DNA of 32,000 bases from Rhodospirillales bacterium (GCA_016185145.1 JACPOB010000091.1:15788-47787); one strand, 5' to 3'. Shown: positions 4,308 to 25,947, counted from the stretch's first letter. Made by a program: numbers and translations. The notes: generated from the sequence alone by a model not told the origin.

Positions 4308-5063
4308 TTAGAACCAAGTCCGCAGGCCGACCGTGAAGCGGACCTGCTGAGTCGGACCGCCGGCGGCACTGACGTAATCGGCGGTAGCGCCGTATTGGCC
4401 GAAATAGGTGATGCCGAGATAGGGCGCGAACTCTCGCGTTATTTCGTAGCGGAGACGCAGCCCCACATCGAGCTCCGAAAGCCCGGCGCCGACGTTCCGT
4501 GCCGGGTCGTCCTTGGTGTAGAAATTCATCTCGAACTGCGGCTGCAGGACCAGGCGCTGTGTGATGAAGAGATCGTAGCTGGCCTCCAGCCTGGCCGCGA
4601 GATGCCCCTCGCCGCTGACGTAGCCGAACGCGGAGACCTTGAAGAAGCCCGGCGCCAATCCCTGGATGCCGATGCCGCCCCAGCCGCGACTGGGCAACGA
4701 GTCCAAGTCCCATCGCACACCGACCAAAGCGTCGAAATAGGTCGTGATGGCACGGCCGTAAAACAGCTGCTGGATGCCGTCGTCCAGTTGGTTGTCGCTA
4801 TAACGGCCTTCGCTCAATAGCCAGATCTTGTTCTCGTCGGTGCCGACCCAGCCCGACGCCTCCCAGCGGAAAGTGTTGCCCTGGGCGAAGCCGAAGCGCC
4901 CTTCCAGCTGGTCGAACAGCAGATGGGCAAAGATCGCCTTGTCGAGCAACTGCGGCATGCCTTGTGGCTGGTCGGCGGTGGGCGTCTGTTGAGCGTGGGC
5001 ATTGCCCGCCAGCCCGGCGGCGAGCAGGACAACCGCGCAGAGCGCGGCGCGGAGCTTGGTCAT
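4308..5063 (-). CDS. copB: copper resistance protein B (outer-membrane CopB/PcoB family)
   Basis: Signal peptide (LLAAGLAGNAHAQQ) followed by a beta-barrel-type sequence ending in an aromatic residue (..GLRTWF). Its ATG overlaps the copA stop (ATGA). Confidence 0.85.
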   Translation of the reverse strand: MTKLRAALCAVVLLAAGLAGNAHAQQTPTADQPQGMPQLLDKAIFAHLLFDQLEGRFGFAQGNTFRWEASGWVGTDENKIWLLSEGRYSDNQLDDGIQQLFYGRAITTYFDALVGVRWDLDSLPSRGWGGIGIQGLAPGFFKVSAFGYVSGEGHLAARLEASYDLFITQRLVLQPQFEMNFYTKDDPARNVGAGLSELDVGLRLRYEITREFAPYLGITYFGQYGATADYVSAAGGPTQQVRFTVGLRTWF

Positions 5064-6910
5064 GATATGCGCACCTCGCGCATCATGCCCGTCTCCATGT
5101 GGTAGAGGAGATGGCAGTGGAAGGCCCAGCGGCCGGGCTCGTCGGCGCTCACCAGGAAGCTCAGCTTCTCACCGGGCTTGACCAGAATGGTATGCTTGTA
5201 CGGGCGGTATTCGCCTTGCCCGTTCTCCAGCTCGCTCCACACGCCATGCAGATGCATCGGGTGCTCCATCATGGTGTCGTTGATCAGGGTGAAGCGTACC
5301 CGCTCGCCGAGCCGAAGCGTGATCGGCGCGGCATCCGAGAATTTCGTGCCGTCGAAGCTCCACATGAAACGGTCCATGTTGCCCGTCAGGTGCAGCACGA
5401 TCTCACGCGTCGGCGGTCGCGGGTCGTTGCCGCGCTTGGCGTTCCGGAGGTCGGTCAAACGCAGCACTCGCCGGCCGTTGCCGTCGAGCCCGCCGCCCGC
5501 TTCGGCGAGACGGTTCCTTGGCGCCATGGCGACGTTGTCTACGCCGACACGGCCTTCGAGCCAGGTGGCAGCGTCTTGCCCGGACATGCCGGCCATCGCC
5601 CCTTGGCTCGGCGCCGCGCCACTCATGCCCGGCATGGCGGCATAATTGGGCGGCGTGGCCGTCGTCGGTCCATGCGTCATGCCGGGCATCGAACCGTGCT
5701 GCATTCCAGAACCCTGGTTCGTCCCCGGCACGGCGTGGCCCGTGTGGGCGTTGTTCGATGCGCCCCGCCCAGAGCTGCCGTGTCCCGAGCCTCCGTGTTC
5801 CATGCCCATGTCGACCATGGTGCGCATCGGCCGTGGATCCATCGGCGGGATCGCCGCTTGCATGCCGAGCTGCGGGGCCAGGGTGCCACGCGCGAACCCG
5901 GTGCGGTCCTGGGTCTGGGCGAAGATCGTGAAGGCGCGCGCCTGGCGCGGCTGGACGATCACGTCATAGGTCTCGCCCGGGCCGATTCGGAACTCATCGA
6001 CCGTGACCGGCACGACGTCGTTGCCGTCACTTTGCACCACGGTCATCGGCAAGTCGGGGATGCGCACATCGAAGATGCTCATGGTGCCGGCATCGATGAA
6101 GCGCAACCGCACCCGCTCACCAGGCCGAAACAGAGCCGTCCAGTTGGCCGCCGGCGGCTGGCCGTTCATGAGATAGGTGTAGGTCGCACCCGTCACGTCG
6201 AGAATGTCGGTCGGGCCCATACGCATCTTGGCCCACATCAGACGATCCTGGATCGTCGGGCCAAGGCCATCGCGCCTGACGTCGTTTATGAACGTGCCCA
6301 GCGTGCGCTGATTGTAGTTGTAATAGTCGGCGTCGAACTTGAGCTTACTGATGATGGTGAGAGGGCTCTCGTCGCTCCAGTCCGACAGCACGATCACATA
6401 GTCGCGATCGAAGGCCTGCGCAAAGCCGCCCTTGGGCTCGATGACCAGAGAACCGTAGACGCCGGTCTGCTCCTCGGCGCCATGCGCATGGTACCAGTAG
6501 GTGCCGCTCTGGCGTACGGGAAAGCGGTAGGTGAACGTCTGGCCCGGCGCGATGCCGTTGAAGCTGAAGCCCGGCACGCCGTCCATCGGCGAGGGCGTGC
6601 GGATGCCATGCCAATGGATCGACGTCGGGAAGGACAACCGGTTGGTGACCGCGAGCGTGACGGTCTCGCCTTCGCGCCACCGTAGGATCGGACCGGGGAC
6701 CTGGCCGTTGATTGCCGTTGCGGTCATGGTCCGGCCGGTGACGTTGAAGGGCAGTGGACCGATGTCGAGCTTGAACTCGGTGCCGCTCAAGACCTGTTGG
6801 GGCGCTCCGGCCAGGGCTGCGCGCCATGGCGGCACGGTAACCAGAGCACCCGCGGCAGCAGCTCCCTGGACGAAGCGTCGGCGGCCGACGCTCGGACGAC
6901 TCCCAGTCAT
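5060..6910 (-). CDS. copA: copper resistance multicopper oxidase CopA/PcoA, Tat-exported
   Basis: Tat motif GRRRFVQGAAAAG. Cu-site motifs HWHG, WYHAH, HPMHLHG and HCHLLYHMETGMM. Contains a Met/His-rich insert. I place the start at the ATG at 6910 (MTGSRPSV...) because it overlaps the stop of the upstream cusF-like frame (ATGA); the track ORF extends to 6964. Confidence 0.9.
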   Translation of the reverse strand: MTGSRPSVGRRRFVQGAAAAGALVTVPPWRAALAGAPQQVLSGTEFKLDIGPLPFNVTGRTMTATAINGQVPGPILRWREGETVTLAVTNRLSFPTSIHWHGIRTPSPMDGVPGFSFNGIAPGQTFTYRFPVRQSGTYWYHAHGAEEQTGVYGSLVIEPKGGFAQAFDRDYVIVLSDWSDESPLTIISKLKFDADYYNYNQRTLGTFINDVRRDGLGPTIQDRLMWAKMRMGPTDILDVTGATYTYLMNGQPPAANWTALFRPGERVRLRFIDAGTMSIFDVRIPDLPMTVVQSDGNDVVPVTVDEFRIGPGETYDVIVQPRQARAFTIFAQTQDRTGFARGTLAPQLGMQAAIPPMDPRPMRTMVDMGMEHGGSGHGSSGRGASNNAHTGHAVPGTNQGSGMQHGSMPGMTHGPTTATPPNYAAMPGMSGAAPSQGAMAGMSGQDAATWLEGRVGVDNVAMAPRNRLAEAGGGLDGNGRRVLRLTDLRNAKRGNDPRPPTREIVLHLTGNMDRFMWSFDGTKFSDAAPITLRLGERVRFTLINDTMMEHPMHLHGVWSELENGQGEYRPYKHTILVKPGEKLSFLVSADEPGRWAFHCHLLYHMETGMMREVRIS

Positions 6911-7397
6911 GAGTGACCTCCTGTGGCGGGCGCGATCGAGTCGATAAGGTATGCGCCGTCGCAAACCCGCTCCATCACGAAGCGCACGTGGGTGCCGGGC
7001 TTGATGGAGCCTGGGTCCACCGACGGTGCGACGGAAGGGTCCGTCATCATTGCCGGCCAGCCGATCCCTCGGGGGAGTGGTTCAGGGCCGGCATCGAGCC
7101 ATGGTCCATCGTGCTGTCGTCCATTCCACGCACTGTAGCCGGGGTCGCAGGGCTCGGTTGATGGCTCATCCCGCTCACGGATGCGGGGGCAGTTGGGCCG
7201 GCCTGCACGGTGCCATAGCCTTCACCCTCGCCGGCAAGGGCTGCGTTGCGCGGGATGCGTGAGGCATTCCCCAGATCGACCGCCAGCGGGGCAGAACCGG
7301 ACTGCGGCGGGACGACGACCAGAGCTTGGTCTGCGCAGGCGGCAAGGACAAGCAAGGACGAGCTCCAGAACAGCAGATGAAGTGAAGGAAGCTTCAT
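6907..7397 (-). pseudogene. CusF-like periplasmic copper-binding lipoprotein, interrupted by a frameshift at a homopolymer
   Basis: The N-terminal frame (start 7397) has a lipobox (LLVLAAC) and a Met/His-rich segment, and stops at 7047. The C-terminal frame reads IGWPAMMTDPSVAPSVDPGSIKPGTHVRFVMERVCDGAYLIDSIAPATGGHS* and ends in an ATGA overlap with copA. The two frames join if the G5 run at 7071..7075 (C5 on the coding strand) had one more base. Confidence 0.65.
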
Positions 7398-7458
7398 CGA
7401 AACTCTCGCAAAGAGATCAAACCAAAATTTACACAAGCCGCTTCTGCGCCGCCGCACA

Positions 7459-7472
7459 TTGATCCAGCTCAA
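7459..7472. promoter_or_regulatory. FNR/FixK-type box TTGATCCAGCTCAA
   Basis: Perfect TTGA-N6-TCAA. Its centre is about 68 nt upstream of the cusF-like start (7397, minus strand). That fits a class II site at about -41.5 with a short leader. Confidence 0.6.
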
Positions 7473-7662: not shown

Positions 7663-8382
7663 ATGATGATCGCCAGCAGAGCTATGCAGGCCGCGAGCTT
7701 GGCAATCGTGATTGGCGTGTGCGGCTTGGCGTTGCCGGCGTCGGGTCAACAGACGCCACCGGCAACCGGCACCCAACCCAAGCCCCCGATGCAGCCCGGC
7801 CCGAGCATGGGCGCGCAGATGCAGCAGCAAGGCATGGAACACGGTCGCATGGGCCAGGGCATGGGCATGGAGGGCAAAGGCATGGGCGGTGCCAACATGC
7901 AGAACATGCAGACGCCGGGCGCTTGCTCCGGCGGACAATGCGGTGGCATGGAAGGCTCAGCGATGCAGGGTCAAATGCCCGGCATGGGACCGAGCGGAGT
8001 GCCGGCGCAAAGCGTGGGCCCGCAGATGATGCAGATGATGATGCAGGGCCATATGGCCGATCTGCCATGGGACCACATCGAGGGACGGATTGCCTACTTG
8101 CATGCCGAGCTGCAGATCACCGAGGCCCAGATGCCGGCGTGGACGGAATTCGCCAATGTGCTGCGTGCCAACGCCAAGCGGATTGCGGAAGTACAAAAGG
8201 CGCCGCAGCGAACGACGACGACCGCAGCCGACAGGATGGATGATCAGGAGCGTTGGCTGACTGCGCGGTTGGAGAGCGTGCGGGCCTTGAAACCTGCCTA
8301 CGTCAAGCTCTACGCTGCGCTCGACGACAAGCAGAAGAAGATCGCTGACGAACTTCTCGCCCCTCACATGGGCATGAGGTAA
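7663..8382 (+). CDS. periplasmic Met-rich protein with C-terminal Spy/CpxP-like (LTXXQ-type) domain
   Basis: Signal peptide, then a Met/Gln/Gly-rich stretch (MQPGPSMGAQMQQQGMEHGRMGQGMGMEGKGMGG...MMQMMMQGHM). The C-terminus (LQITEAQMPAWTEF...ERWLTARLESVRALKPAYVKLYAALDDKQKKIADELL) resembles alpha-proteobacterial Spy/CpxP-family proteins. RBS GGAGA sits 7 nt upstream. Confidence 0.75.
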   Translation: MMIASRAMQAASLAIVIGVCGLALPASGQQTPPATGTQPKPPMQPGPSMGAQMQQQGMEHGRMGQGMGMEGKGMGGANMQNMQTPGACSGGQCGGMEGSAMQGQMPGMGPSGVPAQSVGPQMMQMMMQGHMADLPWDHIEGRIAYLHAELQITEAQMPAWTEFANVLRANAKRIAEVQKAPQRTTTTAADRMDDQERWLTARLESVRALKPAYVKLYAALDDKQKKIADELLAPHMGMR

Positions 8383-11290: not shown

Positions 11291-11338
11291 AACGGATGAG
11301 CTCTCATGGCAGGCGAATCGGTTGTGTGGAACGAGAAA

Positions 11339-12100
11339 ATGTCTAATCGCAAGATTGCCGTTAAACGTGCCGCAGGGATGGCCTTGATCGGGGCGTTGGC
11401 AATTCCCGGCAGCGTGTCGACGCTGGCAAGGCCGACGCCGGGCTACGGTGATCTGATCGACCAGTACTGCATTTCGCAGGGGCGCCTGCGTGTGGCGGCT
11501 CATCAATCGCACTGTGCGATGTGCCATCAGACGGGAACATTCGACAGTCTGCCGGCTCATCGTGTTCAGCCCAATTGGACGGAGTTTGAAAACGCCAAGG
11601 CGACCGGCGACTTCAGCTTCTTCTGTCCCGGTGGAGGTGGGGCGGCGTTCCCCTCACTGCCTTCCGGCGGAACGGGGATCCAGCGGCCCGCAACGGGGGC
11701 TGGAGCGTCGCCGCATGCGATGCCGATGCCTCCGGCGAACGCGCCCCAGCCTCCTTCTGTGGCCGATCGGCAACCCGCGGTCGCCGCGGAAGTCGAAGAC
11801 CGCCTGAAGCGCTTTCGCGACGAGGTCGGGATCGGCCAGCCTGAGCCGGCGGCCTGGACCGCCTTTGCCGAGGCCGTGCGCGCTGCCGCAGCGGCCGACC
11901 GCCGCGCGTTCGCGGATCAGACATCGCGTGAGGCGCCAGATGCGCTCAGCCTCGCACGCCAGCAGGAGCGGCGCCTGTCGGCACGGATCGGCGCGCTGCG
12001 CTATGTTGCGACGGCCTTCACTCGCCTTCTGCCGGAATTGAACGATCAGCAGCGCAAGATCGCCAACGAGCGCTTTGCCCTGATTCTAGAGGTCCTCTAA
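11339..12100 (+). CDS. exported fusion protein: N-terminal CxxCH (haem-c motif) domain + Pro/Ala/Gly linker + C-terminal Spy/CpxP-like domain
   Basis: Signal peptide MSNRKIAVKRAAGMALIGALAIPGSVSTLA. Single CAMCH motif plus two further Cys (DQYC, FFCPGG). Linker contains HAMPMPP. The C-terminus is paralogous to the 7663..8382 protein (AWTAFAEAVRAAAAA...ERRLSARIGALRYVATAFTRLLPELNDQQRKIANE). An alternative upstream ATG is at 11306. Confidence 0.7.
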   Translation: MSNRKIAVKRAAGMALIGALAIPGSVSTLARPTPGYGDLIDQYCISQGRLRVAAHQSHCAMCHQTGTFDSLPAHRVQPNWTEFENAKATGDFSFFCPGGGGAAFPSLPSGGTGIQRPATGAGASPHAMPMPPANAPQPPSVADRQPAVAAEVEDRLKRFRDEVGIGQPEPAAWTAFAEAVRAAAAADRRAFADQTSREAPDALSLARQQERRLSARIGALRYVATAFTRLLPELNDQQRKIANERFALILEVL

Positions 12101-12114
12101 GGAAGGAGGATGTC

Positions 12115-12339
12115 GTGTGTCTCGCCGTTCCGATGCGAATCGATTCGATTGACCGATTTGTGGCGCAGTGTTCGGTCCGCGGGGTGTCGCGCGACGTCAG
12201 TCTTTTCATGCTGGAGGAGGGTTCGGTCTCGGTCGGCGACTATGTGCTTGTCCACGTGGGCTACGCCATCCAGGTGATCAGCGCTGCCGAGGCGGCGGCG
12301 ACGTGGGAAATCTTCGACGAAGCTCTTTCGACAGCGTAA
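12115..12339 (+). CDS. hypC: hydrogenase maturation chaperone HypC/HupF family
   Basis: Begins (GTG)MCLAVPMRI, the essential N-terminal Cys motif. 74 aa. RBS GGAAGGAGGA lies directly upstream. Confidence 0.9.
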   Translation: MCLAVPMRIDSIDRFVAQCSVRGVSRDVSLFMLEEGSVSVGDYVLVHVGYAIQVISAAEAAATWEIFDEALSTA

Positions 12340-12348
12340 GGGGGCGTC

Positions 12349-12714
12349 GTGCACGAACTTTCCATTTGCCAGGCTCTTCTCGACGAGGTGTCGCGAGTTG
12401 CTCGACAGCATGGGGCCGAGCGCGTCCTGTCCGTGACCGTCCGAGTAGGCCCCTTGTCTGGCGTCGACTCCGGCTTATTGACGCGAGCATTCAAGGTCGC
12501 GCGCCAGGGCACGGTGGCCAGCGGCGCGCGCCTGTGCATCGACAGGGCTGCCGTGATGCTCGAATGCCGGCAGTGCGGTCGATGCACGACTGGTCGAACC
12601 GGTCGCTTCCGATGCGGCTTCTGCGGCGCGCGCGACGTCGATGTCACCGCGGGCGAGGAGCTGGTTCTTCAGACCCTGGAGCTGGAAACGACGGAGGAAA
12701 GCCATGTGCAATGA
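12349..12714 (+). CDS. hypA: hydrogenase nickel insertion protein HypA
   Basis: N-terminal MHE motif (GTG start) and a zinc site CRQCG...CGFCG. 121 aa. Confidence 0.9.
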   Translation: MHELSICQALLDEVSRVARQHGAERVLSVTVRVGPLSGVDSGLLTRAFKVARQGTVASGARLCIDRAAVMLECRQCGRCTTGRTGRFRCGFCGARDVDVTAGEELVLQTLELETTEESHVQ

Positions 12715-13468
12715 TTGTGGCTGTGCGGTGCCGGACTCGGCGAAACATCACGATAGAATACGTACGCACACCGCGTCGGTCGCAGTGCTGAAGGACCTTC
12801 TTGCCGAGAACGACCGAACGGCCCGGCACAACCAGGTGCACTTCGACGCGGCGGGCGTCTTCGCGATCAACCTGATGTCGGCCCCAGGGTCCGGCAAGAC
12901 AGCGCTCCTCGAGGCAACGATCGAAGCTTTGAAAGGGAAGCGACGGGTGGCGGTCATCGAAGGTGATCTTGCTACCGAGAACGATGCCGAGCGGATTCGA
13001 CGGCATGGCGTCCCCGCGGTCCAGATCACAACGGGAACGGCCTGCCATCTCGACGCGCACATGATCCACGAGGTCTTGCACGACATGCCGCTTCAGGATC
13101 TCGACATCCTGTTCATCGAGAACGTGGGCAACCTGGTGTGCCCCGCATCGTTCGATCTCGGGCAACACCGAAATGTGACCCTGCTGTCGGTCCCCGAAGG
13201 CGACGACAAGCCGGCCAAGTACCCGGTAATGTTCAGGGGCAGCGACGCCATCCTCGTCAGCAAGACCGACCTTCTGCCCCACTTCGACGATTTTCGGCTC
13301 GAACGGGCGCAGGCGGCGGTGCGGAGCATCGCCTGCGATTCGCCCATTATCAGCGTCTCCGTACGCACCAGCAACGGCCTCCGCCATTGGATCGACTGGC
13401 TGGACCGACAACTGGCCCAGTATCGAGGTGGCGAGCGGCCGGCCGTCGCCGTGGAAGCGGCCTCATGA
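12704..13468 (+). CDS. hypB: hydrogenase nickel incorporation GTPase HypB
   Basis: Starts MCNDCGC (high-affinity Ni motif). P-loop GSGKT, then ENVGNLVCP. No poly-His tract. The start at 12704 overlaps the hypA end by 11 nt. The track ORF begins earlier at 12641. Confidence 0.9.
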   Translation: MCNDCGCAVPDSAKHHDRIRTHTASVAVLKDLLAENDRTARHNQVHFDAAGVFAINLMSAPGSGKTALLEATIEALKGKRRVAVIEGDLATENDAERIRRHGVPAVQITTGTACHLDAHMIHEVLHDMPLQDLDILFIENVGNLVCPASFDLGQHRNVTLLSVPEGDDKPAKYPVMFRGSDAILVSKTDLLPHFDDFRLERAQAAVRSIACDSPIISVSVRTSNGLRHWIDWLDRQLAQYRGGERPAVAVEAAS

Positions 13469-14592
13469 GGGGCTCAGCCAAGGCGTGGCTGGAGCGCATT
13501 CGTGGACTGCCCTTGGAGCGACCGCTCAGCATTCTCAACGTCTGCGGCGGGCACGAGCGGACGCTGGCGCAGGCCGGCCTGCGGGCCGCTCTGCCCGAGA
13601 CAATTCGGATCATTCCGGGCCCCGGTTGTCCGGTTTGCGTCTGTCCGGAGGAAGACGTCTACGAGGCGATTCGCTTGGCACTGGAGGACAACACCATCCT
13701 CGTGGCCTTCGGTGACATGTTGCGCGTGCCTGTCAACGTCGCCAAGGGGGAGGTTCGCTCCCTCAGCGAAGCGCGTGCCAAGGGCGCCGACGTGCGGCCG
13801 ATTGCAAGCCCGCGTGAGGCGGTAGCCATTGCCCAAACTTACCCGACCAAGCGTACCGTCTTCTTTGCGGCCGGCTTCGAAACTACGATGGCCCCCGTGG
13901 CGTCCATGCTCTGCGAAGGGGTGCCGGAGAACCTGCTCTTGCTTTTGTCGGGGCGGCTCACCTGGCCGGCGGTCGACATGTTGCTGGCGTCGGAAGCGCC
14001 CGGGTTCGAGGCTTTGATCGCGCCCGGCCACGTGGCGACCGTCATGGGGCCTGAGGAGTGGTCTTTCGTGGCCGACCAGTACGGCATGCCGGCGGCCGTG
14101 GCGGGCTTCACGGCGGAGAGCCTGTTGGCCGCCATCCACTCTGTGCTGACGCAACTTCTTGCCGGCACCGCGGTCTTGGAGAATTGCTATCCAGCCAGCG
14201 TCCGCCGGGGTGGCAATCGGATCGCCAAGCAGTACCTGTCGCGCGCCATGCGAGTCGTCGACGCAAACTGGCGCGCCATCGGCACGATTGCCCGTTCCGG
14301 CTTTGCCCTTGTCGAGGCTTTCGCAAGCCACGACGCACGTAGCCTGTTGGCGCTGTCGGAGACCGCGCAGCGTCGGCGGGCGGGAGAGATGCCGCCCGGC
14401 TGCGATTGCGCCCGCGTCGTGCTGGGCAAGGTTCTGCCGACGGACTGCAAGCTCTATGGTAAAGCCTGCACTCCTCGAAGCCCCATCGGACCGTGCATGG
14501 TGTCGGATGAGGGTGCCTGTCACATCTGGTGGACGTCGGGCATTCGAGACTCTCGAAGTGGCCGTCAGGGACGTCCCACTTACGCGGCTTGA
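13465..14592 (+). CDS. hypD: hydrogenase maturation protein HypD
   Basis: Motifs CGGHE, GPGCPVCVCP, GFETT and PGHV. ATGA overlap with the hypB stop. The track ORF (13138) has a spurious Arg-rich 5' extension. Confidence 0.9.
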   Translation: MRGSAKAWLERIRGLPLERPLSILNVCGGHERTLAQAGLRAALPETIRIIPGPGCPVCVCPEEDVYEAIRLALEDNTILVAFGDMLRVPVNVAKGEVRSLSEARAKGADVRPIASPREAVAIAQTYPTKRTVFFAAGFETTMAPVASMLCEGVPENLLLLLSGRLTWPAVDMLLASEAPGFEALIAPGHVATVMGPEEWSFVADQYGMPAAVAGFTAESLLAAIHSVLTQLLAGTAVLENCYPASVRRGGNRIAKQYLSRAMRVVDANWRAIGTIARSGFALVEAFASHDARSLLALSETAQRRRAGEMPPGCDCARVVLGKVLPTDCKLYGKACTPRSPIGPCMVSDEGACHIWWTSGIRDSRSGRQGRPTYAA

Positions 14593-14598
14593 AGGGCA

Positions 14599-15084
14599 AT
14601 GCCAGCCCCGCCACTCACGCTCGTTCTAGGGTATGGCAACTCGTCGTATGCCGACGATGGCCTCGGAACGAATGCCATTGCCTATCTGAAGGCGCAGGAG
14701 TCGGCGGCAGACCTGCCTGCTGATCTGTTGCTGCTCGACGGCGGAACGGCCGTTTTCGAGCTGGTGGATCATATAGAGCGGTGCGACCGTCTGGTCGTGA
14801 TCGATGCGGCAGAGATGGCCGCAGCGCCGGGCACGGTGCGCTGCTTTGTCGGTGTCGATATGGACCGGCAGCTCGGGCAAGCACGGCGCACGGCGCATGA
14901 GGTTGCGTTACGTGATGTCTTGGACATCGCCCGACTCGAGGAAAGGTTACCTGGGCGGCGAGCACTCATCGGCGTGCAACCCAAGAGCCTCGACTTCAAG
15001 GTTGGGTTGTCGACGGAAGTGGAGCGATCGCTGCCGATTGTTCGCGAGCGGCTCCTTCACGTGATTTTCCATGAATGGAAGTAG
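14599..15084 (+). CDS. hupD: hydrogenase maturation endopeptidase (HupD/HyaD/HybD family)
   Basis: LVLGYGNSSYADDGLG motif, the conserved Asp/His pattern, 161 aa. It matches the cleavable C-terminal extension on the large subunit. Confidence 0.85.
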   Translation: MPAPPLTLVLGYGNSSYADDGLGTNAIAYLKAQESAADLPADLLLLDGGTAVFELVDHIERCDRLVVIDAAEMAAAPGTVRCFVGVDMDRQLGQARRTAHEVALRDVLDIARLEERLPGRRALIGVQPKSLDFKVGLSTEVERSLPIVRERLLHVIFHEWK

Positions 15085-17380
15085 CGTGACGGTCGGCTCT
15101 CTCGCTTCCGTCCTCCTGCTGGTCGAAGGGCGCGTTCAAGGCGTCGGCTTTCGCCCCTTCATCTGGCGATTGGCGCGAGATCACCGTCTGGCCGGCTGGG
15201 TGCGCAATGACGGCGCCCATGTGCTGATACGCCTGGAAGGAACCGAACAGGAGATCGCTGTATTTTCCCGGCAGCTGGTCGACGGATCGCCTCCCCTGGC
15301 GCGGCCTCAGCTGACCTCGATCAAGCCGCTCGCCTGGGAGGGCTATGCCGACTTCTCGATTGAGCCCAGTGTCGTTGGCGAATCCGCCGCCGCGTCAATT
15401 CCACCGGATCACTTTGCCTGTCCCGAGTGTCTGGCGGAGCTGCGTGATCCGTCGATGCGGCGATATCGTTATCCCTTCATCAACTGCACGCAGTGCGGTC
15501 CCCGATACACGATCATCGACTCCCTTCCTTACGACAGGCCCAACACGGCCATGGCTCCGTTTCGGATGTGCGCCGCCTGCCAAGCCGAATATGAGCGTCC
15601 CGAAGATCGCCGCTATCACGCCCAACCGCTGGCCTGCGCCGAATGCGGGCCCAGGCTGCAGTTCGTCACAAACGATGCCTTATTGTCCGACAGTTCTCTC
15701 GACGGCGAGGCGGCCCTCGGCGCAGCGATCTCGTGTCTGCGTCAAGGCCTCATCGTCGCCGTCAAGGGCATCGGCGGATTTCATCTCTTGTGCGACGCGA
15801 AGGCGGAGGCGACCGTCCAGCGCCTTCGGCAGCGCAAGCGGCGGCCACAAAAGCCGTTGGCAGTAATGGTGAAACAGAGCGGGCCGGACGGCTTGCAATA
15901 TGCGCGAGCGGTGGCACGGCTGTCAGAGGTGGAGGCGGCGGCTCTGGTCGATCCTATGCGACCTGTAGTCATCGCGACAAAGGGACAAGAGGTACTCGCG
16001 CCATCCATAGCGCCGGGGCTTGGCGAAATTGGCCTACTGTTACCCTACAGCCCTTTGCACGCGCTGCTGCTTGACGAATTCGGCGGCCCGCTTGTTGCCA
16101 CCAGCGGCAACTGTTCAGGCGATCCGGTGGAGATCGACGAGGGCTCGGCCGTCAAGCGGTTGGGCGACGTCGCGGACGCCTTTCTCATCCACAACCGACC
16201 GATCCGGCGGCCGGCTGACGATCCGGTGTGCCGGGAGATTGCCGGGCAGGTCCGGCCCTTGCGTTTGGGACGTGGCAATGCGCCCTTGCAGCTTGGACTG
16301 CCGGCACGGCTCGAGCGCCCGCTCTTGGCGGTCGGTGGTCACATGAAGAGCACGATTGCGCTGGCATGGGCCGACCGGGCCGTCGTGTCGCCCCATATTG
16401 GTGACCTCGGATCACCGCGAAGTCAGTCACTGTTTGTGGACGTTGTGCAGGGCGTGCAGAAGCTGTTTGGCATTCGGGCGCAAGCGATGGTCTGCGATCT
16501 CCATCCTGGCTACAGCTCCACGCGCTGGGCTCGCCGCAGTGGGCTGCCGGTGATCGCCGTCCAGCATCACCGCGCACATGCCTCGGCCTTGGCAGGCGAG
16601 CACGCGCGCGCCTCCGACATGCTGGTGTTCACGTGGGATGGCTTAGGCATAGGAGACGACCATACGCTGTGGGGTGGTGAGGCATTCTTCGGCACGCCTG
16701 GTCACTGGCGCCGAGTCGCCTCGTTCCGACCGTTCCGACTGCCGGGTGGAGAACGAGCCGCACGCGAGCCGTGGCGCTGCGCCTTGGGTCTCTGCTGGGA
16801 GGCAGGCATGGATTGGGGCGACGCATCCGCAGAGAGCCGGCTGTTGCGGAGAGCTTGGGAGGCCAACATCAACTGTCCGGCCACGACTTCAGTTGGACGG
16901 CTGTTCGACGCTGCGGCTGCGCTTCTGGGCTTCGCCGGCCGTGCGAGCTACGAGGCGCAGGCAGCGATGTGGCTGGAGGCGCAGGCGAGCCATGCCGAGG
17001 CGACAGCAATGCCCCTGCGAACAGAGGCTGGACTTACAGTCGCCGATTGGGAGCCGCTGATGCGGAGCCTAGCCGATGCCTCCCTTTCGGTCGGTGAGCG
17101 TAGCGCCATCTTCCACGAATCGTTGGCGAGCACCCTCCTGGACCAGGCAACACTGGTCCGTACGACGACCTCGATCCATACCGTTGGGCTGGTCGGTGGT
17201 GTGTTCCAGAACAGGCGGCTGACCGAGCGGGCAGTGCACTTGCTCACGGCAGCCGGTTTCGAAGTATTGCTGCCAACGGCCGTGCCGATGAACGACGCCG
17301 GCCTCAGCTACGGGCAGATCGTCGAGGCGGCAGCCTTGCAAGCAACAGCACCGCGAAGGCAAAGCGCACATGCACGCTGA
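15071..17380 (+). CDS. hypF: carbamoyltransferase HypF
   Basis: Acylphosphatase-like N-terminus (VEGRVQGVGFRPF). Two zinc-finger pairs (CPECLAEL...CTQCGPRYT and CAACQAEY...CAECGP). YrdC-like and Kae1-like regions follow. The start could alternatively be the GTG at 15086. Confidence 0.9.
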   Translation: MNGSSVTVGSLASVLLLVEGRVQGVGFRPFIWRLARDHRLAGWVRNDGAHVLIRLEGTEQEIAVFSRQLVDGSPPLARPQLTSIKPLAWEGYADFSIEPSVVGESAAASIPPDHFACPECLAELRDPSMRRYRYPFINCTQCGPRYTIIDSLPYDRPNTAMAPFRMCAACQAEYERPEDRRYHAQPLACAECGPRLQFVTNDALLSDSSLDGEAALGAAISCLRQGLIVAVKGIGGFHLLCDAKAEATVQRLRQRKRRPQKPLAVMVKQSGPDGLQYARAVARLSEVEAAALVDPMRPVVIATKGQEVLAPSIAPGLGEIGLLLPYSPLHALLLDEFGGPLVATSGNCSGDPVEIDEGSAVKRLGDVADAFLIHNRPIRRPADDPVCREIAGQVRPLRLGRGNAPLQLGLPARLERPLLAVGGHMKSTIALAWADRAVVSPHIGDLGSPRSQSLFVDVVQGVQKLFGIRAQAMVCDLHPGYSSTRWARRSGLPVIAVQHHRAHASALAGEHARASDMLVFTWDGLGIGDDHTLWGGEAFFGTPGHWRRVASFRPFRLPGGERAAREPWRCALGLCWEAGMDWGDASAESRLLRRAWEANINCPATTSVGRLFDAAAALLGFAGRASYEAQAAMWLEAQASHAEATAMPLRTEAGLTVADWEPLMRSLADASLSVGERSAIFHESLASTLLDQATLVRTTTSIHTVGLVGGVFQNRRLTERAVHLLTAAGFEVLLPTAVPMNDAGLSYGQIVEAAALQATAPRRQSAHAR

Positions 17381-18389
17381 ACTCGACAAGCTGAGGCGCG
17401 ACCTGCTCGAACAGTCGGTGACGTTGGCGCATGGCAACGGCGGGCGCCTCACCCGCGAGCTGGTGGACGGAATCTTCGCCTTCCACCTACGTGGCGACAC
17501 ATCAGTCGATGCGGCCCCGCTCAAGCCGGTCGATGGAGAGCTCGTCATGACGACAGACGGCTTCATCGTCGAGCCGCTGGAATTCCCCGGGGGAAGCATC
17601 GGGAGCCTCGCTGTCAACGGCACTGTAAACGATCTGGCGGTCATGGGTGCCAGGCCCCTGTACCTCACGCTTAACGCGTTCATTGAAGAAGGGCTCGAGG
17701 TCCGTCTCTTGGATCGATTGATCGCCGATGCCGCACAGGCGGCCGGCGCAGCCGGCGCGGCCGTGATCGCTGGCGACACGAAGGTGCTCCGTCAGGGTGA
17801 AGGCAGCGGGCTGTATCTCGGCATGGCCGGGGTCGGCGTGCGTCGGCCAAGCTTGAGGCTCGGCCTAGAACACATTCGAGCTGGAGACAGAGTGCTCGTC
17901 AGCGGAACCGTAGGCGATCATGGCGCGGCCGTGCTGCTTGCCCGGCAGGATTTTGGGTTGGCCGGCCATTTGCGCTCCGATTGCGCGAGCGTCCTCGAAG
18001 TGGCGATGGCGCTTCTCGGCATTCGAGGTCTTCGGTTCATGCGCGATCCTACACGCGGAGGCCTTGCGACTGTCGCCCACGATATTCTTCGCGGAACTGG
18101 CTGTGGCGTTCAGCTCTACGAGGCGGGAATTCCCGTAAGCGAGGCGGCCAGGGGCATCTGCGAGATGCTCGGTTTTGACCCGCTGATCTTGCCAAGCGAA
18201 GGACGTCTGATCGCCGTCGTGGCGGCTGATACCGCAGCGAGCGCGTTGATGGCGATGCGACGGCATGGGTGTCCGGACGCTGCCATTGTCGGCACCGTCA
18301 CAAGCGATCCCTACGTTGCGCTCAAGACCGAACTGGGCGAACGCCTTATCGAGGAGTTGGAGCACGACCCCTTGCCGAGGATCTGCTGA
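17370..18389 (+). CDS. hypE: hydrogenase maturation protein HypE
   Basis: LAHGNGG near the N-terminus, a PurM-like fold, and a C-terminus ending PRIC. Overlaps hypF by 11 nt. Confidence 0.9.
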   Translation: MHAELDKLRRDLLEQSVTLAHGNGGRLTRELVDGIFAFHLRGDTSVDAAPLKPVDGELVMTTDGFIVEPLEFPGGSIGSLAVNGTVNDLAVMGARPLYLTLNAFIEEGLEVRLLDRLIADAAQAAGAAGAAVIAGDTKVLRQGEGSGLYLGMAGVGVRRPSLRLGLEHIRAGDRVLVSGTVGDHGAAVLLARQDFGLAGHLRSDCASVLEVAMALLGIRGLRFMRDPTRGGLATVAHDILRGTGCGVQLYEAGIPVSEAARGICEMLGFDPLILPSEGRLIAVVAADTAASALMAMRRHGCPDAAIVGTVTSDPYVALKTELGERLIEELEHDPLPRIC

Positions 18390-18392
18390 GCG

Positions 18393-18800
18393 TCATCGAG
18401 GCGACTGTCCCAGCGACTCCAACTTGGCCTGTAGCGTATCGGCTGCTTCCGCCGCTTCCGCGATGGTGGCCGCAAGAAGCGTCGGCACCAAAGCCACCTC
18501 GATTGCGGAACCGAGATGATTGCCGCCGTCGTTCGCATGGTCGAGCCACCAGACGGCGGAGAACGCCGTCTCCTCAATCCTCGTTAAGCCGAGCGCATGC
18601 ACTTCGATTGACACTTCGCCCTTCCCAAGGCCGCCGCGGAGGGCCGTCAAGTCGTCCGCCGTGAGCGGCAGGCGTCGCAGATCGACCGTCACCGCTTGGC
18701 CAGTGGCAGCCAGGGCGCGCAAACCGGCGACGACTTCGTTCAGGATCGCAGCCACCATGGGGGAAACCCCACCGTTTCCAAATGGCGAGGTTGTGCTCAC
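18393..18800 (-). CDS. hydrogenase accessory protein, single HupH_C-like (HyaF/HoxQ C-terminal) domain
   Basis: LPLTADDLTALRGGLGKGEVSIEV...RIEETAFSAVWWL resembles the HupH/HyaF pattern L..LG.GEVS....I.ET.F.GVW. GTG start with RBS GGGAGGG. Its stop is only 3 nt from the hypE stop (convergent). Family assignment is from memory. Confidence 0.6.
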   Translation of the reverse strand: MSTTSPFGNGGVSPMVAAILNEVVAGLRALAATGQAVTVDLRRLPLTADDLTALRGGLGKGEVSIEVHALGLTRIEETAFSAVWWLDHANDGGNHLGSAIEVALVPTLLAATIAEAAEAADTLQAKLESLGQSPR

Positions 18801-18973: not shown

Positions 18974-19300
18974 GTGCTGATCCCCCACCTGCTGCAATGG
19001 ACGTTAACTCTGATCGAGTTGCTGGGTGTCGGCGTGATCGTTGCGGCTGTAGTCATGTCTACAGTCTTCTTCGGGAAGCAGGGATTGGCCGTCGGATGGG
19101 AGACAGCCTTCCAAAATACCGCGCCGACCTTGGGCGCGGAATCCGCTGGGCCTTGAGTTTTTGGTTGCCGCCGACATCATCGGAACCGTTGCCGTGACAC
19201 CCAGCTTCCAGAGCCTCGGGGTTCTGTGCTTGATCATTGGCATCTGAACACTGCTGAGCTTCTCACTCGAAGTGGAAATTGAGGGACGGTGGCCGTGGCG
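18974..19300 (+). pseudogene. DUF1622-family membrane protein, decayed (two frameshifts and an in-frame TGA)
   Basis: The reading is spread over three frames: LIPHLLQWTLTLIELLGVGVIVAAVVMS.., then KYRADLGRGI, then LGLEFLVAADIIGTVAVTPSFQSLGVLCLIIGI-TGA(19245..19247)-TLLSFSLEVEIEGRWPW. It matches the DUF1622 pattern as I recall it. The 3' boundary is approximate. Confidence 0.6.
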
Positions 19301-19624
19301 ACGGCACCGTAGCGGAGGCGCAACGGCGCGGTCGATGGACGGTGTTGGTCTACCACACGCACCGACAAGCAGGTGTAACGGTTGCTGCCTGCCGAAATAC
19401 ACAGGGCTTCGCATTTCATCAGCGACCAGAGTAATAGTGCCAGGGCCAGCATCGACCGCCTGAACATGCCCTTCGGCGTGGGCATGTCCTTGCTGGGAGA
19501 CAAGGTGCCGATGGTGGCGGTCCAGCCTATCCAACCAATGGGCGGGACTTGCAGTCTCTTGGCCACTTGCCGGGGCGGAGGCCAGCGCCAGAAGCAGCGC
19601 GAGTGCCGTGCAACGAACTGTCAA
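19004..19624 (-). CDS. putative secreted His-rich protein; only the N-terminal ~100 codons look plausible
   Basis: TTG start and a good signal peptide (MTVRCTALALLLALASAPASGQ). This is followed by HWLDRLDRHHRHLVSQQGHAHAEGHVQAVDAGPGTITL, reminiscent of the start of CusF-like proteins. The expected WPAMTM core is absent. The 3' half of the ORF is antisense to the DUF1622 remnant. Confidence 0.3.
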   Translation of the reverse strand: MTVRCTALALLLALASAPASGQETASPAHWLDRLDRHHRHLVSQQGHAHAEGHVQAVDAGPGTITLVADEMRSPVYFGRQQPLHLLVGACGRPTPSIDRAVAPPLRCRRHGHRPSISTSSEKLSSVQMPMIKHRTPRLWKLGVTATVPMMSAATKNSRPSGFRAQGRRGILEGCLPSDGQSLLPEEDCRHDYSRNDHADTQQLDQS

Positions 19625-19709: not shown

Positions 19710-20105
19710 ATGGCTCGGCGTCGCAGGCATGTTGTGCTGCTTCTGCTGAATGTCCTTTGTCTCGCCTGGCTTCGGGGACGAGGAGTGGCCATGCGTCCCC
19801 GGACCAGGAACCGTTCCCCCTTGCATATGCTGCTGCTGGCGATTGTCCTTGTCCCCGGGCGCTGCCTGCTGCGCAGATGCTCCTTGGATGGCAGTGAGCA
19901 GACCGACAGCCGCAACGGCTGCGGAGATGCAGCCGCCATCGAGAGCAAGGTGCGTGAGATCGAAAATCTGAGATCGGACCAGCGACTCACGTTCATCCGT
20001 GCGGTCGGCGACGCCGGGAAACTCCTGACCTCGGATCAGCAAAAGATGGTGCACGGCCTGATGCCAATGCCATCGAACGCCCCGATGTCGAAGCCGATGA
20101 AATAG
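19710..20105 (+). CDS. putative periplasmic LTXXQ-like protein; N-terminal extent uncertain
   Basis: The C-terminus AAIESKVREIENLRSDQRLTFIRAVGDAGKLLTSDQQKMVHGLMPMPSNAPMSKPMK carries an LTXXQ-type motif and a Met-rich tail. The 5' two-thirds is codon-aligned antisense to another plausible ORF (19689..20054, minus strand). Confidence 0.35.
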   Translation: MARRRRHVVLLLLNVLCLAWLRGRGVAMRPRTRNRSPLHMLLLAIVLVPGRCLLRRCSLDGSEQTDSRNGCGDAAAIESKVREIENLRSDQRLTFIRAVGDAGKLLTSDQQKMVHGLMPMPSNAPMSKPMK

Positions 20106-24761: not shown

Positions 24762-25947
24762 GTCGTCTGGAACTGAAGTTCATTACATTATAGGAGAGCG
24801 CTCTGGGCCTTGTAAGGAGAGCGCTGATGGCAAATGGACGTGCGAGGGGTCGGCCGATCGCGCCGTTGGAGTTGAGTGCTGAGGAGCGGGCCTATCTGGA
24901 GCGGCAAGTGCGTCGCCATCGCGTCGCCCGGTCGCTGTCCGAGCGGTGCCGCATCATTCTACGGTGTGCGGACGGATCGCCCAGCAAGTCCATCGCGACC
25001 GAGCTCGGCCGTGCACGAACACACGGTTGGCAAATGGCGGCGCCGCTTCTTGAAGGATCGCTGCGATGGCCTGTTTGACGAGGCTCGTCCAGGCCGGCCG
25101 CGCACTATCGACGATGATCAGGTTGCGGCCGTGATCGAGCAGACGTTGCGCACCACGCCGGCCGACGCGACGCACTGGTCGATCCGTTCGATGGCGGCGG
25201 AGACCGGCTTTTCCCACACCACGATCCGCCGGATGTGGGCGGCGTTCGGCTTGCAGCCGCACCGCAGCCAGACGTTCAAGCTGTCGGACGATCCGCTGTT
25301 CGTCGACAAGGTGCGCGATATCGTCGGCCTTTACCTCTCGCCGCCCAACCGCGCGCTTGTTCTCAGCATTGACGAGAAAAGCCAGATCCAGGCCCTGGAT
25401 GCGAACAGCCGGTCTTGCCGATGATGCCCGGTGTCCCTGAACGGCGGACGCACAACTACGTGCGACACGGGACGACCTCGCTGTTCGCCGCCCTCGATGT
25501 TGCCTCAGGCTTCGTCATCGGCAAGTGCTACAGGCGCCACCGGGCGGCTGAGTTCTTGAACTTCCTCAGAGAGATCGACGCTCAGGTCCCTGAAGGGCTC
25601 GACGTCCATATCGTCTTGGACAACTATGCCACCCACAAGACGCCCAAGATCAAGGCGTGGCTCGCCCGCCGGCCGCACTATCACGTACACTTCACGCCGA
25701 CTTCGGCATCATGGATCAATCAGGTCGAGCGCTGGTTTGCAGAGCTCACCAGGAAGCGGCTCCGACGCGGCGTTCATACCTCGGTCAGGCAACTGCAAGC
25801 CGACATCCGCGCCTTCATCGACCGGCACAACCAAAACCCCAAGCCCTTCAAATGGACCAAGTCCGCCGACCAAATCCTCGCCTCGGTCAAGCGCTTCTGC
25901 CAGAAGACACAGAAGACTTTATGCAGCGAACTTTAGATTCAGAGGAC
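24762..25947 (+). mobile_element. IS630-family insertion sequence (about 1.19 kb), TA target-site duplication, transposase inactivated
   Basis: Imperfect terminal inverted repeats. 24759..24788 (CTAGTCGTCTGGAACTGAAGTTCATTACAT) against the reverse complement of 25921..25950 (CTAGTCCTCTGAATCTAAAGTTCGCTGCAT) matches 23/30 positions. TA is present at 24760..24761 and at 25948..25949. Confidence 0.75.
24827..25936 (+). pseudogene. IS630-family DDE transposase, split over three frames by two single-base indels
   Basis: Frame 1 gives the HTH part (..RCRIILRCADGSPSKSIATELG). Frame 2 gives VHEHTVGKWRRRFLKDRCDGLFDEARPGRPRTI...[11 protein letters not shown]. Frame 3 gives [31 protein letters not shown]...VLDNYATHK...[12 protein letters not shown]. 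The shifts lie near 25009..25010 and 25400..25401. Confidence 0.8.

Follow-up and report, generated by a model that had tools for sequence, protein, structure and literature searches.

How a periplasmic [NiFe]-hydrogenase without a membrane anchor is linked to an aerobic respiratory chain is unsettled where the enzyme has neither a cytochrome b nor an Isp partner. A stretch of 32,000 nucleotides of Rhodospirillales bacterium DNA (GCA_016185145.1 JACPOB010000091.1:15788-47787), which we analysed at its full length and refer to as the window, encodes an enzyme of this kind. Between the hydrogenase large subunit gene, hydL, and the first maturation gene, hypC, lies a gene, here called X, for an exported protein in which a CxxCH domain is fused through a linker to a domain of the LTXXQ (Spy/CpxP-like) family. 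Our analysis indicates that X is probably a new kind of electron-accepting hydrogenase subunit. In the loci examined it is the sole non-maturation gene that always accompanies hydS and hydL, the genes of the small and large subunits.

The open reading frame (ORF) of gene X spans 11306..12100 on the forward strand and encodes 264 amino acids, exactly where an earlier reading of the DNA, made from the sequence alone and here called the sequence-only reading, had placed an exported protein. The product is identical to the NCBI entry 'MAG: hypothetical protein HYX38_20950 [Rhodospirillales bacterium]' (MAG, metagenome-assembled genome), and the GC content at third codon positions is 0.72, like that of adjacent genes. 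M12 (position 11339) is a possible alternative start. The hydropathy of X peaked at about residues 19-37, a segment followed by STLA and then RP. Because an A-x-A-R-P motif is kept in the X family while twin arginines are not consistently present, the signal was assigned to the Sec type, and X was ruled out as a substrate of twin-arginine translocation (Tat). The signal peptide is predicted to be cut after STLA (residue 41), with export of X to the periplasm. No hydrophobic segment was found in the hydropathy profile beyond the signal peptide, which ruled out a role for X as a membrane anchor.

The cysteines of X are found in DQYC (residues 52-55), HQSHCAMCH (residues 66-74) and FFCPGG (residues 105-110). 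The sequence-only reading had described these motifs within an N-terminal domain of roughly 90 residues; the motifs are as described, and the mature domain is shorter, at about 68 residues. It had likewise recognized a Pro/Ala/Gly linker containing HAMPMPP, and we located this motif at residues 137-143 (11714..11734) in a linker whose 52 residues include 11 Ala, 11 Pro and 9 Gly. We found X undescribed in the searchable literature, which leaves out most subscription journals, and within that scope the combination of domains does not correspond to a described hydrogenase subunit, as had been suspected. Public databases label such proteins as hypothetical or as LTXXQ family members.

The association of X with the hydrogenase was strict. 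The family is very small: among 5.8 billion proteins, a word-indexed search retrieved only 27 relatives, and the closest one from a named organism was an Enhydrobacter aerosaccus 'LTXXQ motif family protein' with 65% identity. The gene order hydS-hydL-X-hypC-hypA-hypB-hypD-(endopeptidase)-hypF was present in 8/8 genome loci, namely those of Enhydrobacter aerosaccus ATCC 27094, a Rhodospirillaceae MAG, Bradyrhizobium denitrificans LMG 8443, B. diazoefficiens SZCCT0138, three further Bradyrhizobium/Bradyrhizobiaceae assemblies and a Xanthobacteraceae MAG. Three metagenome loci had the same order, and the same block was found on pBBta01, the conjugative 229-kb plasmid of Bradyrhizobium sp. BTAi1, where X is a 'hypothetical protein' (BBTA_RS37530, WP_011931026.1). 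More distant CxxCH-LTXXQ proteins, referred to as clade 2 (P0030-P0033, ~31% identity to X), were flanked by hydL and hypC-hypA in two loci. Homologues of X with an LTXXQ tail thus lay between hydL and hypC in every one of the 14 loci, about 12 of which count as independent, so that the linkage to hydrogenase genes on which the sequence-only reading had made its proposal depend was found without exception. Loci L001 and L002 (Rhodospirillaceae MAG X2_MaxBin.011 and Enhydrobacter aerosaccus ATCC 27094) have near-identical coordinates and per-gene identities and for this reason are not independent counts. On pBBta01 the cluster is adjoined by IS66 elements. In the window, 15 bases separate the hydL stop codon from X and 14 bases separate X from hypC, and no terminator-like site was found between hydL, X and hypC, in a promoter/terminator scan that was otherwise uninformative.

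The hydrogenase itself appears to be soluble. HydS carries a Tat signal (SRRGFLKF) and the standard CTGC proximal-cluster motif, which is not of the six-cysteine, O2-tolerant type, and its chain stops right after the conserved fold, leaving no C-terminal membrane anchor. The best match in the PDB was 3myr_A from Allochromatium vinosum (357 bits), followed by 1h2a_S (316 bits; labelled 'HYDROGENASE', and which we take to be the Desulfovibrio vulgaris Miyazaki enzyme) and 1h2r_S (286 bits; 'periplasmic [NiFe] hydrogenase small subunit'). An 8-residue insertion relative to 3myr_A was seen at about residues 190-200 of HydS, in the LVAAGKVK region. HydL likewise matched 3myr_B best (856 bits, ~70% identity); the highest-scoring chain of the Hyd-1/Hyd-5 type reached 722 bits. 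The enzymes of A. vinosum and Thiocapsa belong to the Isp type (group 1e), in which the S and L genes are separated by isp1 and isp2. Because the S and L genes are adjacent here, the enzyme would be a catalytic dimer resembling the Isp type from which the membrane module has been lost, a class assigned by best PDB match together with this grouping. Neither isp1 nor isp2 was found anywhere in the window or at 12 related loci, and a cytochrome b gene was likewise missing from all the hydrogenase clusters examined. The sequence-only reading had placed X in the position normally taken by cytochrome b or another electron-transfer subunit, which is correct for operons of the hupSLC type and does not hold for A. 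vinosum, the closest solved relative, given the location of its partner genes.

The N-terminal domain is the most conserved part of X. Among the hydrogenase-linked homologues it aligned without gaps at a mean column identity of 78%. Across the wider superfamily, down to 27% identity, the only invariant residues were C55, C70, C73, H74 and C107, with several aromatic positions also retained, and because these five are the sole invariants over such divergence we regard the motif as more than a chance occurrence. Two further histidines, H66 and H69, were invariant only in the clade of the window and are replaced in clade 2 and in proteins with immunoglobulin-like (Ig) repeats. In a proteobacterial protein exported by Sec, an invariant CxxCH is the hallmark of haem c, and the proteobacterial cytochrome c maturation (Ccm) system, which Bradyrhizobium possesses, needs little beyond an exported CxxCH. 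On this basis we consider it likely that X carries a covalently bound haem on its CxxCH. For the other two invariant cysteines, a disulfide is the most plausible reading. That the four cysteines together bind an iron-sulfur (Fe-S) cluster or zinc was rejected as unlikely, since X is a Sec substrate and the spacing C-x14-C-x2-C-H-x32-C is unlike cluster or zinc-knuckle motifs.

The N-domain matched no family at all. In particular, it did not match a well-known non-haem family, a match that the sequence-only reading had named as one that would refute its proposal. Specifically, no Pfam or NCBIfam match to the domain was found in X and 10 relatives. A PDB search with a full-length X profile gave only noise, and the N-domain profile gave weak matches of ~15 residues at the motif, nearly all of them to haem sites of c-type cytochromes. 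With HMMER, an exhaustive profile search across 1.84 billion representative proteins retrieved only 23 with the N-domain, among them members of the two hydrogenase-linked clades, and a word-indexed search with the same profile retrieved one protein and nothing beyond that set. The domain also occurred, after a signal peptide and without LTXXQ, in large secreted proteins of 487-1526 amino acids, where it is followed by arrays of Big_9, He_PIG, cadherin-like or PKD repeats (P0027, P0035-P0044; loci L013-L016). The gene for one of these distant Ig-repeat relatives, P0035, lies between genes for a 149-residue protein with five CxxCH motifs and a 291-residue protein with four, together with a cytochrome b gene, and another N-domain relative, P0039, has a second CxxCH region. 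An Ig-repeat protein other than P0035 is encoded next to a SCO1/SenC-like gene. The N-domain has the appearance of an unannotated domain family with a wider role.

The C-terminal domain was more readily placed. Residues 180-255 of X match the Pfam family LTXXQ (PF07813) with an E-value of 2.5e-5 and 25.4 bits, compared with a cut-off of 24.3, and most homologues carry a precomputed PF07813 label, although the first LTXXQ motif is degenerate in X (IGQPE). AlphaFold2 (AF2) modelled helices at residues 160-174, 182-204, 213-244 and 247-263, mostly with a predicted local distance difference test (pLDDT) score above 90. The best Foldseek matches to the X model were CpxP, Spy and CnrX, albeit weak (E 0.6-4) because the query was the whole model including its disordered parts. 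As the sequence-only reading had observed, the domain is paralogous to the LTXXQ protein encoded upstream of hydS (33% identity over 99 residues, E 2e-13). The near-invariant residues of the C-domain are I176, W184, S225, R232, A237, L245, Q249 and R250. No conserved His, Met or Cys was found in this domain in the family alignment; a metal site in the LTXXQ domain was therefore ruled out, which argues for a structural or binding module, and a metal-binding Spy-like module, which had been one of the original proposals, is not favoured. The Met motifs are instead in the linker. All 30 family linkers hold one, and Met makes up 5.5% of their 2,676 residues. The motifs include HAMPMP, MGMG, PMG[MKIT]PP and MAWMALG[FY]PxGH; clade 2 linkers share an invariant M-x-W-M-x-L-G-[FY]-P-x-G-H, and in the Bradyrhizobium clade the motif is reduced to one Met. 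These methionines could supply the distal ligand of the haem, take part in docking or bind Cu(I).

Taken as a whole, the evidence tips slightly towards an electron-transfer role for X. We propose, with belief and doubt in roughly equal measure, that X is either a periplasmic subunit of this soluble [NiFe]-hydrogenase, which is itself exported by Tat, or a redox partner dedicated to it, and that in X a new mono-haem c domain is combined with a Spy-like dimerizing or docking module. We favour a tethered mono-haem acceptor because an anchorless enzyme needs an acceptor and X is the only encoded candidate. The observations on which we base this are the architecture of X, its conservation, its linkage to the operon and the absence of any other electron-transfer gene from the cluster. 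In the mechanism that we envisage, X would be exported unfolded via Sec and, once its signal peptide had been removed, would receive one haem on C70-A-M-C73-H74 from the cytochrome c maturation system, with H74 as the proximal ligand and a disulfide between C55 and C107. The haem domain, on its flexible Pro/Ala/Gly tether, would take electrons from the distal Fe-S cluster of HydS and pass them to the periplasmic pool of c-type cytochromes or to a terminal oxidase, and not to quinone. X would in this way stand in for Isp1/Isp2 or for the cytochrome b module of related enzymes. The Spy/CpxP-like domain would serve as a dimerizing and/or docking module by which the haem domain stays close to the hydrogenase; Spy, CpxP and CnrX themselves form dimers.

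Several points weigh against this proposal. The N-domain could be assigned to no described cytochrome c family or fold with Pfam, NCBIfam, the PDB or Foldseek, although the Foldseek query, which gave no match, was a model of low confidence. AF2 assigned the N-domain a pLDDT of only 37-75 from the family alignment, and a broader alignment of N-domains alone did no better (mean 62, up to 79); such values are nothing out of the ordinary where a small domain depends on a cofactor and its alignment is shallow. No sixth haem ligand was conserved in the alignment of the N-domain superfamily. To our knowledge, a Spy-like domain is without precedent in electron-transfer subunits. Finally, the Met-rich linkers and the frequent copper-resistance neighbours would fit a metal-related role equally well. 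The features on which these arguments draw are collected in Table 1.

Table 1. Features of gene X, the hydrogenase cluster and neighbouring genes in the window, with positions counted from its first nucleotide.
Feature	Position	Strand	Remarks
copB	4308..5063	-	
copA, multicopper oxidase	5060..6964	-	
141-aa Met/His-rich lipoprotein-like ORF	7047..7472	-	Signal LLVLAAC; tail MDDSTMDHGSMPALNH
Met-rich LTXXQ protein, paralogue of the X C-domain	7663..8382	+	PF07813, E 1.6e-17; directly upstream of hydS
hydS, [NiFe]-hydrogenase small subunit, 328 aa	8540..9526	+	Pfam Oxidored_q6 and NiFe_hyd_SSU_C; NCBIfam hydA
hydL, [NiFe]-hydrogenase large subunit, 574 aa	9566..11290	+	Pfam NiFeSe_Hases, E 1.4e-227
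X, predicted Sec-type signal peptide	11306..11428	+	Residues 1-41; basic stretch and hydrophobic core, by inspection of the sequence only
X, N-domain with CxxCH	11429..11635	+	Residues 42-110; C55, C70-x-x-C73-H74, C107
X, CAMCH, putative haem c attachment site	11513..11527	+	Residues 70-74
X, Pro/Ala/Gly-rich linker, variable length	11636..11785	+	Residues about 109-160; AF2 pLDDT < 50
X, C-terminal LTXXQ (CpxP/Spy-like) helical domain	11786..12097	+	PF07813; AF2 helices
Maturation genes hypC, hypA, hypB, hypD, endopeptidase, hypF, hypE	12115..18389	+	Pfam; directly downstream of X
HupH C-terminal-domain protein, convergent, conserved cluster end	18393..18800	-	PF04809, E 1.7e-25
Short ORF downstream of the HupH gene	19004..19624	-	Signal peptide, His-rich stretch, CusF-like 'GxVxxVDxxxGxITL' start
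131-aa ORF	19710..20105	+	LTSDQQ motif, Met-rich end MPMPSNAPMSKPMK; homologue in L006

Among the alternatives, one that we consider unlikely is a periplasmic protection or assembly factor, in which the Spy-like domain would chaperone or stabilize the exported hydrogenase. The CxxCH domain, whether or not it binds haem, would then sense oxidants or scavenge them and would carry no respiratory electrons. The LTXXQ family includes the chaperones Spy and CpxP, and the C-domain is the most confidently modelled part of X; however, it is the CxxCH domain, with its 78% column identity, and not the LTXXQ domain that is most conserved, and the N-domain occurs in other secreted proteins that have no LTXXQ, once among multihaem cytochromes. 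The position of X at the border of the structural and maturation genes would suit an assembly factor, as would the LTXXQ paralogue just before hydS, a position kept in Enhydrobacter as well as in the window, but an operon from which X is taken away as an electron acceptor is left with no candidate for that function.

Quite improbable, in our estimation, is a role for X in binding copper or another soft metal, in functional association with the copper-resistance genes around it. Cu(I) would be bound by the linker methionines and/or the cluster of Cys and His residues, for example to shield the periplasmic Fe-S enzyme from copper. In favour of this, 8 of the 12 full-size loci, including the window and pBBta01, had cop/cus-type genes no more than 10 kb from the hydrogenase cluster. 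Yet X was kept in the operon at four Bradyrhizobium chromosomal loci with no copper genes nearby, and at no locus examined did it adjoin cop genes in the absence of the hydrogenase. The copper-gene neighbourhood may either be functional or simply reflect a shared mobile island. Similarly, the presence of a Met motif in every one of the 30 linkers is offset by its reduction to a single Met in the Bradyrhizobium clade, and membership of a superfamily that includes the metal binders CnrX and ZraP is offset by the lack of conserved metal ligands in the LTXXQ domain of X. CxxCH is a haem c signature, and it is not known from any copper site.

The copper and heavy-metal surroundings were seen at L001/L002, L005, L006, L009-L011 and L018, and comprise copA/copB, CusF-like 'copper-binding protein' genes, the Met/His lipoprotein, Met-rich LTXXQ proteins and CzcB. 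In the window, the 141-residue product encoded beside copA is probably a small copper-binding lipoprotein; its homologues adjoin CusF-like genes in Enhydrobacter and in locus L011. The C-terminal half of the short ORF downstream of the HupH gene looks unrelated to CusF, possibly owing to a frameshift. The HupH C-terminal-domain gene was present in L001-L011 and L018. Further downstream, at 24876..25936 on the forward strand, are two adjacent ORFs, the first with transposase-type HTH_32 and HTH_29 domains, which suggests an insertion sequence and fits a mobile, plasmid-like region.

That the cysteines of X form two disulfides or a redox-active CxxC without any cofactor, in a non-redox tether or an accessory protein that merely travels with the operon, is very improbable: it would agree with the lack of fold or family support for a cytochrome, with the absence of a conserved distal ligand and with the fusion of the N-domain to adhesin-like Ig/cadherin repeats elsewhere, but it gives no reason for the His that follows the second Cys of the motif in all relatives, and strict synteny over ~60% sequence divergence points to a function tied to the enzyme.

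The tethered mono-haem acceptor that we favour can be compared with several characterized systems. Periplasmic hydrogenases with c-type cytochrome partners are of a known kind, exemplified by Desulfovibrio HynAB and cytochrome c3, which shares with the present system a Tat-exported heterodimer, an anchorless small subunit and the periplasmic haem c acceptor that we propose for X. Cytochrome c3, however, is a tetrahaem, bis-His protein of known fold, encoded elsewhere and without an extra domain, whereas X combines one CxxCH in an unclassified domain with a long tether and a Spy-like module, and its gene lies inside the hydrogenase operon of aerobic Alphaproteobacteria. The Allochromatium vinosum and Thiocapsa roseopersicina systems (hynS-isp1-isp2-hynL) provide the closest solved subunits and have the same standard proximal motif and anchorless small subunit, but their Isp1, a membrane dihaem b protein, and Isp2, an HdrD-like protein, are absent here, and X follows the L gene. 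HupC, HyaC and HoxZ occupy the same slot directly after the large subunit gene and have the same presumed job at the distal cluster. HupC, in contrast, is a dihaem b protein embedded in the membrane, where it reduces quinone, whereas X has a c-type motif and no similarity to HupC; neither a Ni_hydr_CYTB match in Pfam nor four transmembrane helices in the hydropathy profile were found in X.

Two further comparisons concern the design of X. Membrane-anchored cytochrome c_y likewise joins a small haem domain through a long Ala/Pro-rich linker to an anchoring module and shuttles in a 'fishing-line' manner, although it has an N-terminal transmembrane anchor and a class I haem domain, whereas in X the order is reversed, the anchor would be a soluble helical domain and the candidate haem domain is unclassified. 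CpxP, Spy, ZraP and CnrX resemble the C-domain, which scores above the LTXXQ threshold and is predicted to form long helical hairpins, but none of them has a CxxCH domain or lies in a hydrogenase operon, and the metal ligands of CnrX and ZraP are absent from X. The in-operon, Spy-fused partner with a single CxxCH on a tether, the unclassified N-domain family and the Isp-less enzyme lineage all appear to be new.

A more far-reaching picture can be drawn, although we judge it improbable in its entirety. X would mark a new hydrogenase subtype of aerobic soil Alphaproteobacteria, spread by conjugative plasmids together with copper resistance, in which a tethered haem module, possibly also copper-binding, bypasses the quinone pool and H2 serves as a periplasmic reductant for a cytochrome c/oxidase branch or for defence against metal stress. 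Its N-domain would found a haem c family that also heads the Ig-repeat surface proteins.

For anchorless periplasmic hydrogenases in aerobic bacteria, X represents a single, strictly linked candidate gene for electron acceptance, and the operon is present in cultured strains, namely Enhydrobacter aerosaccus ATCC 27094, Bradyrhizobium sp. BTAi1 (on pBBta01) and B. denitrificans LMG 8443. The recurrent copper-resistance surroundings raise the separate question of how H2 metabolism and metal stress are connected. If X binds haem, its N-domain would be a new small cytochrome c domain family that is invisible to Pfam-based annotation, and its C-domain would be the first Spy-like domain in a redox subunit. 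Haem binding by X would also suggest that H2 oxidation in these organisms is coupled at the level of cytochrome c, which would change the energy yield expected from it.

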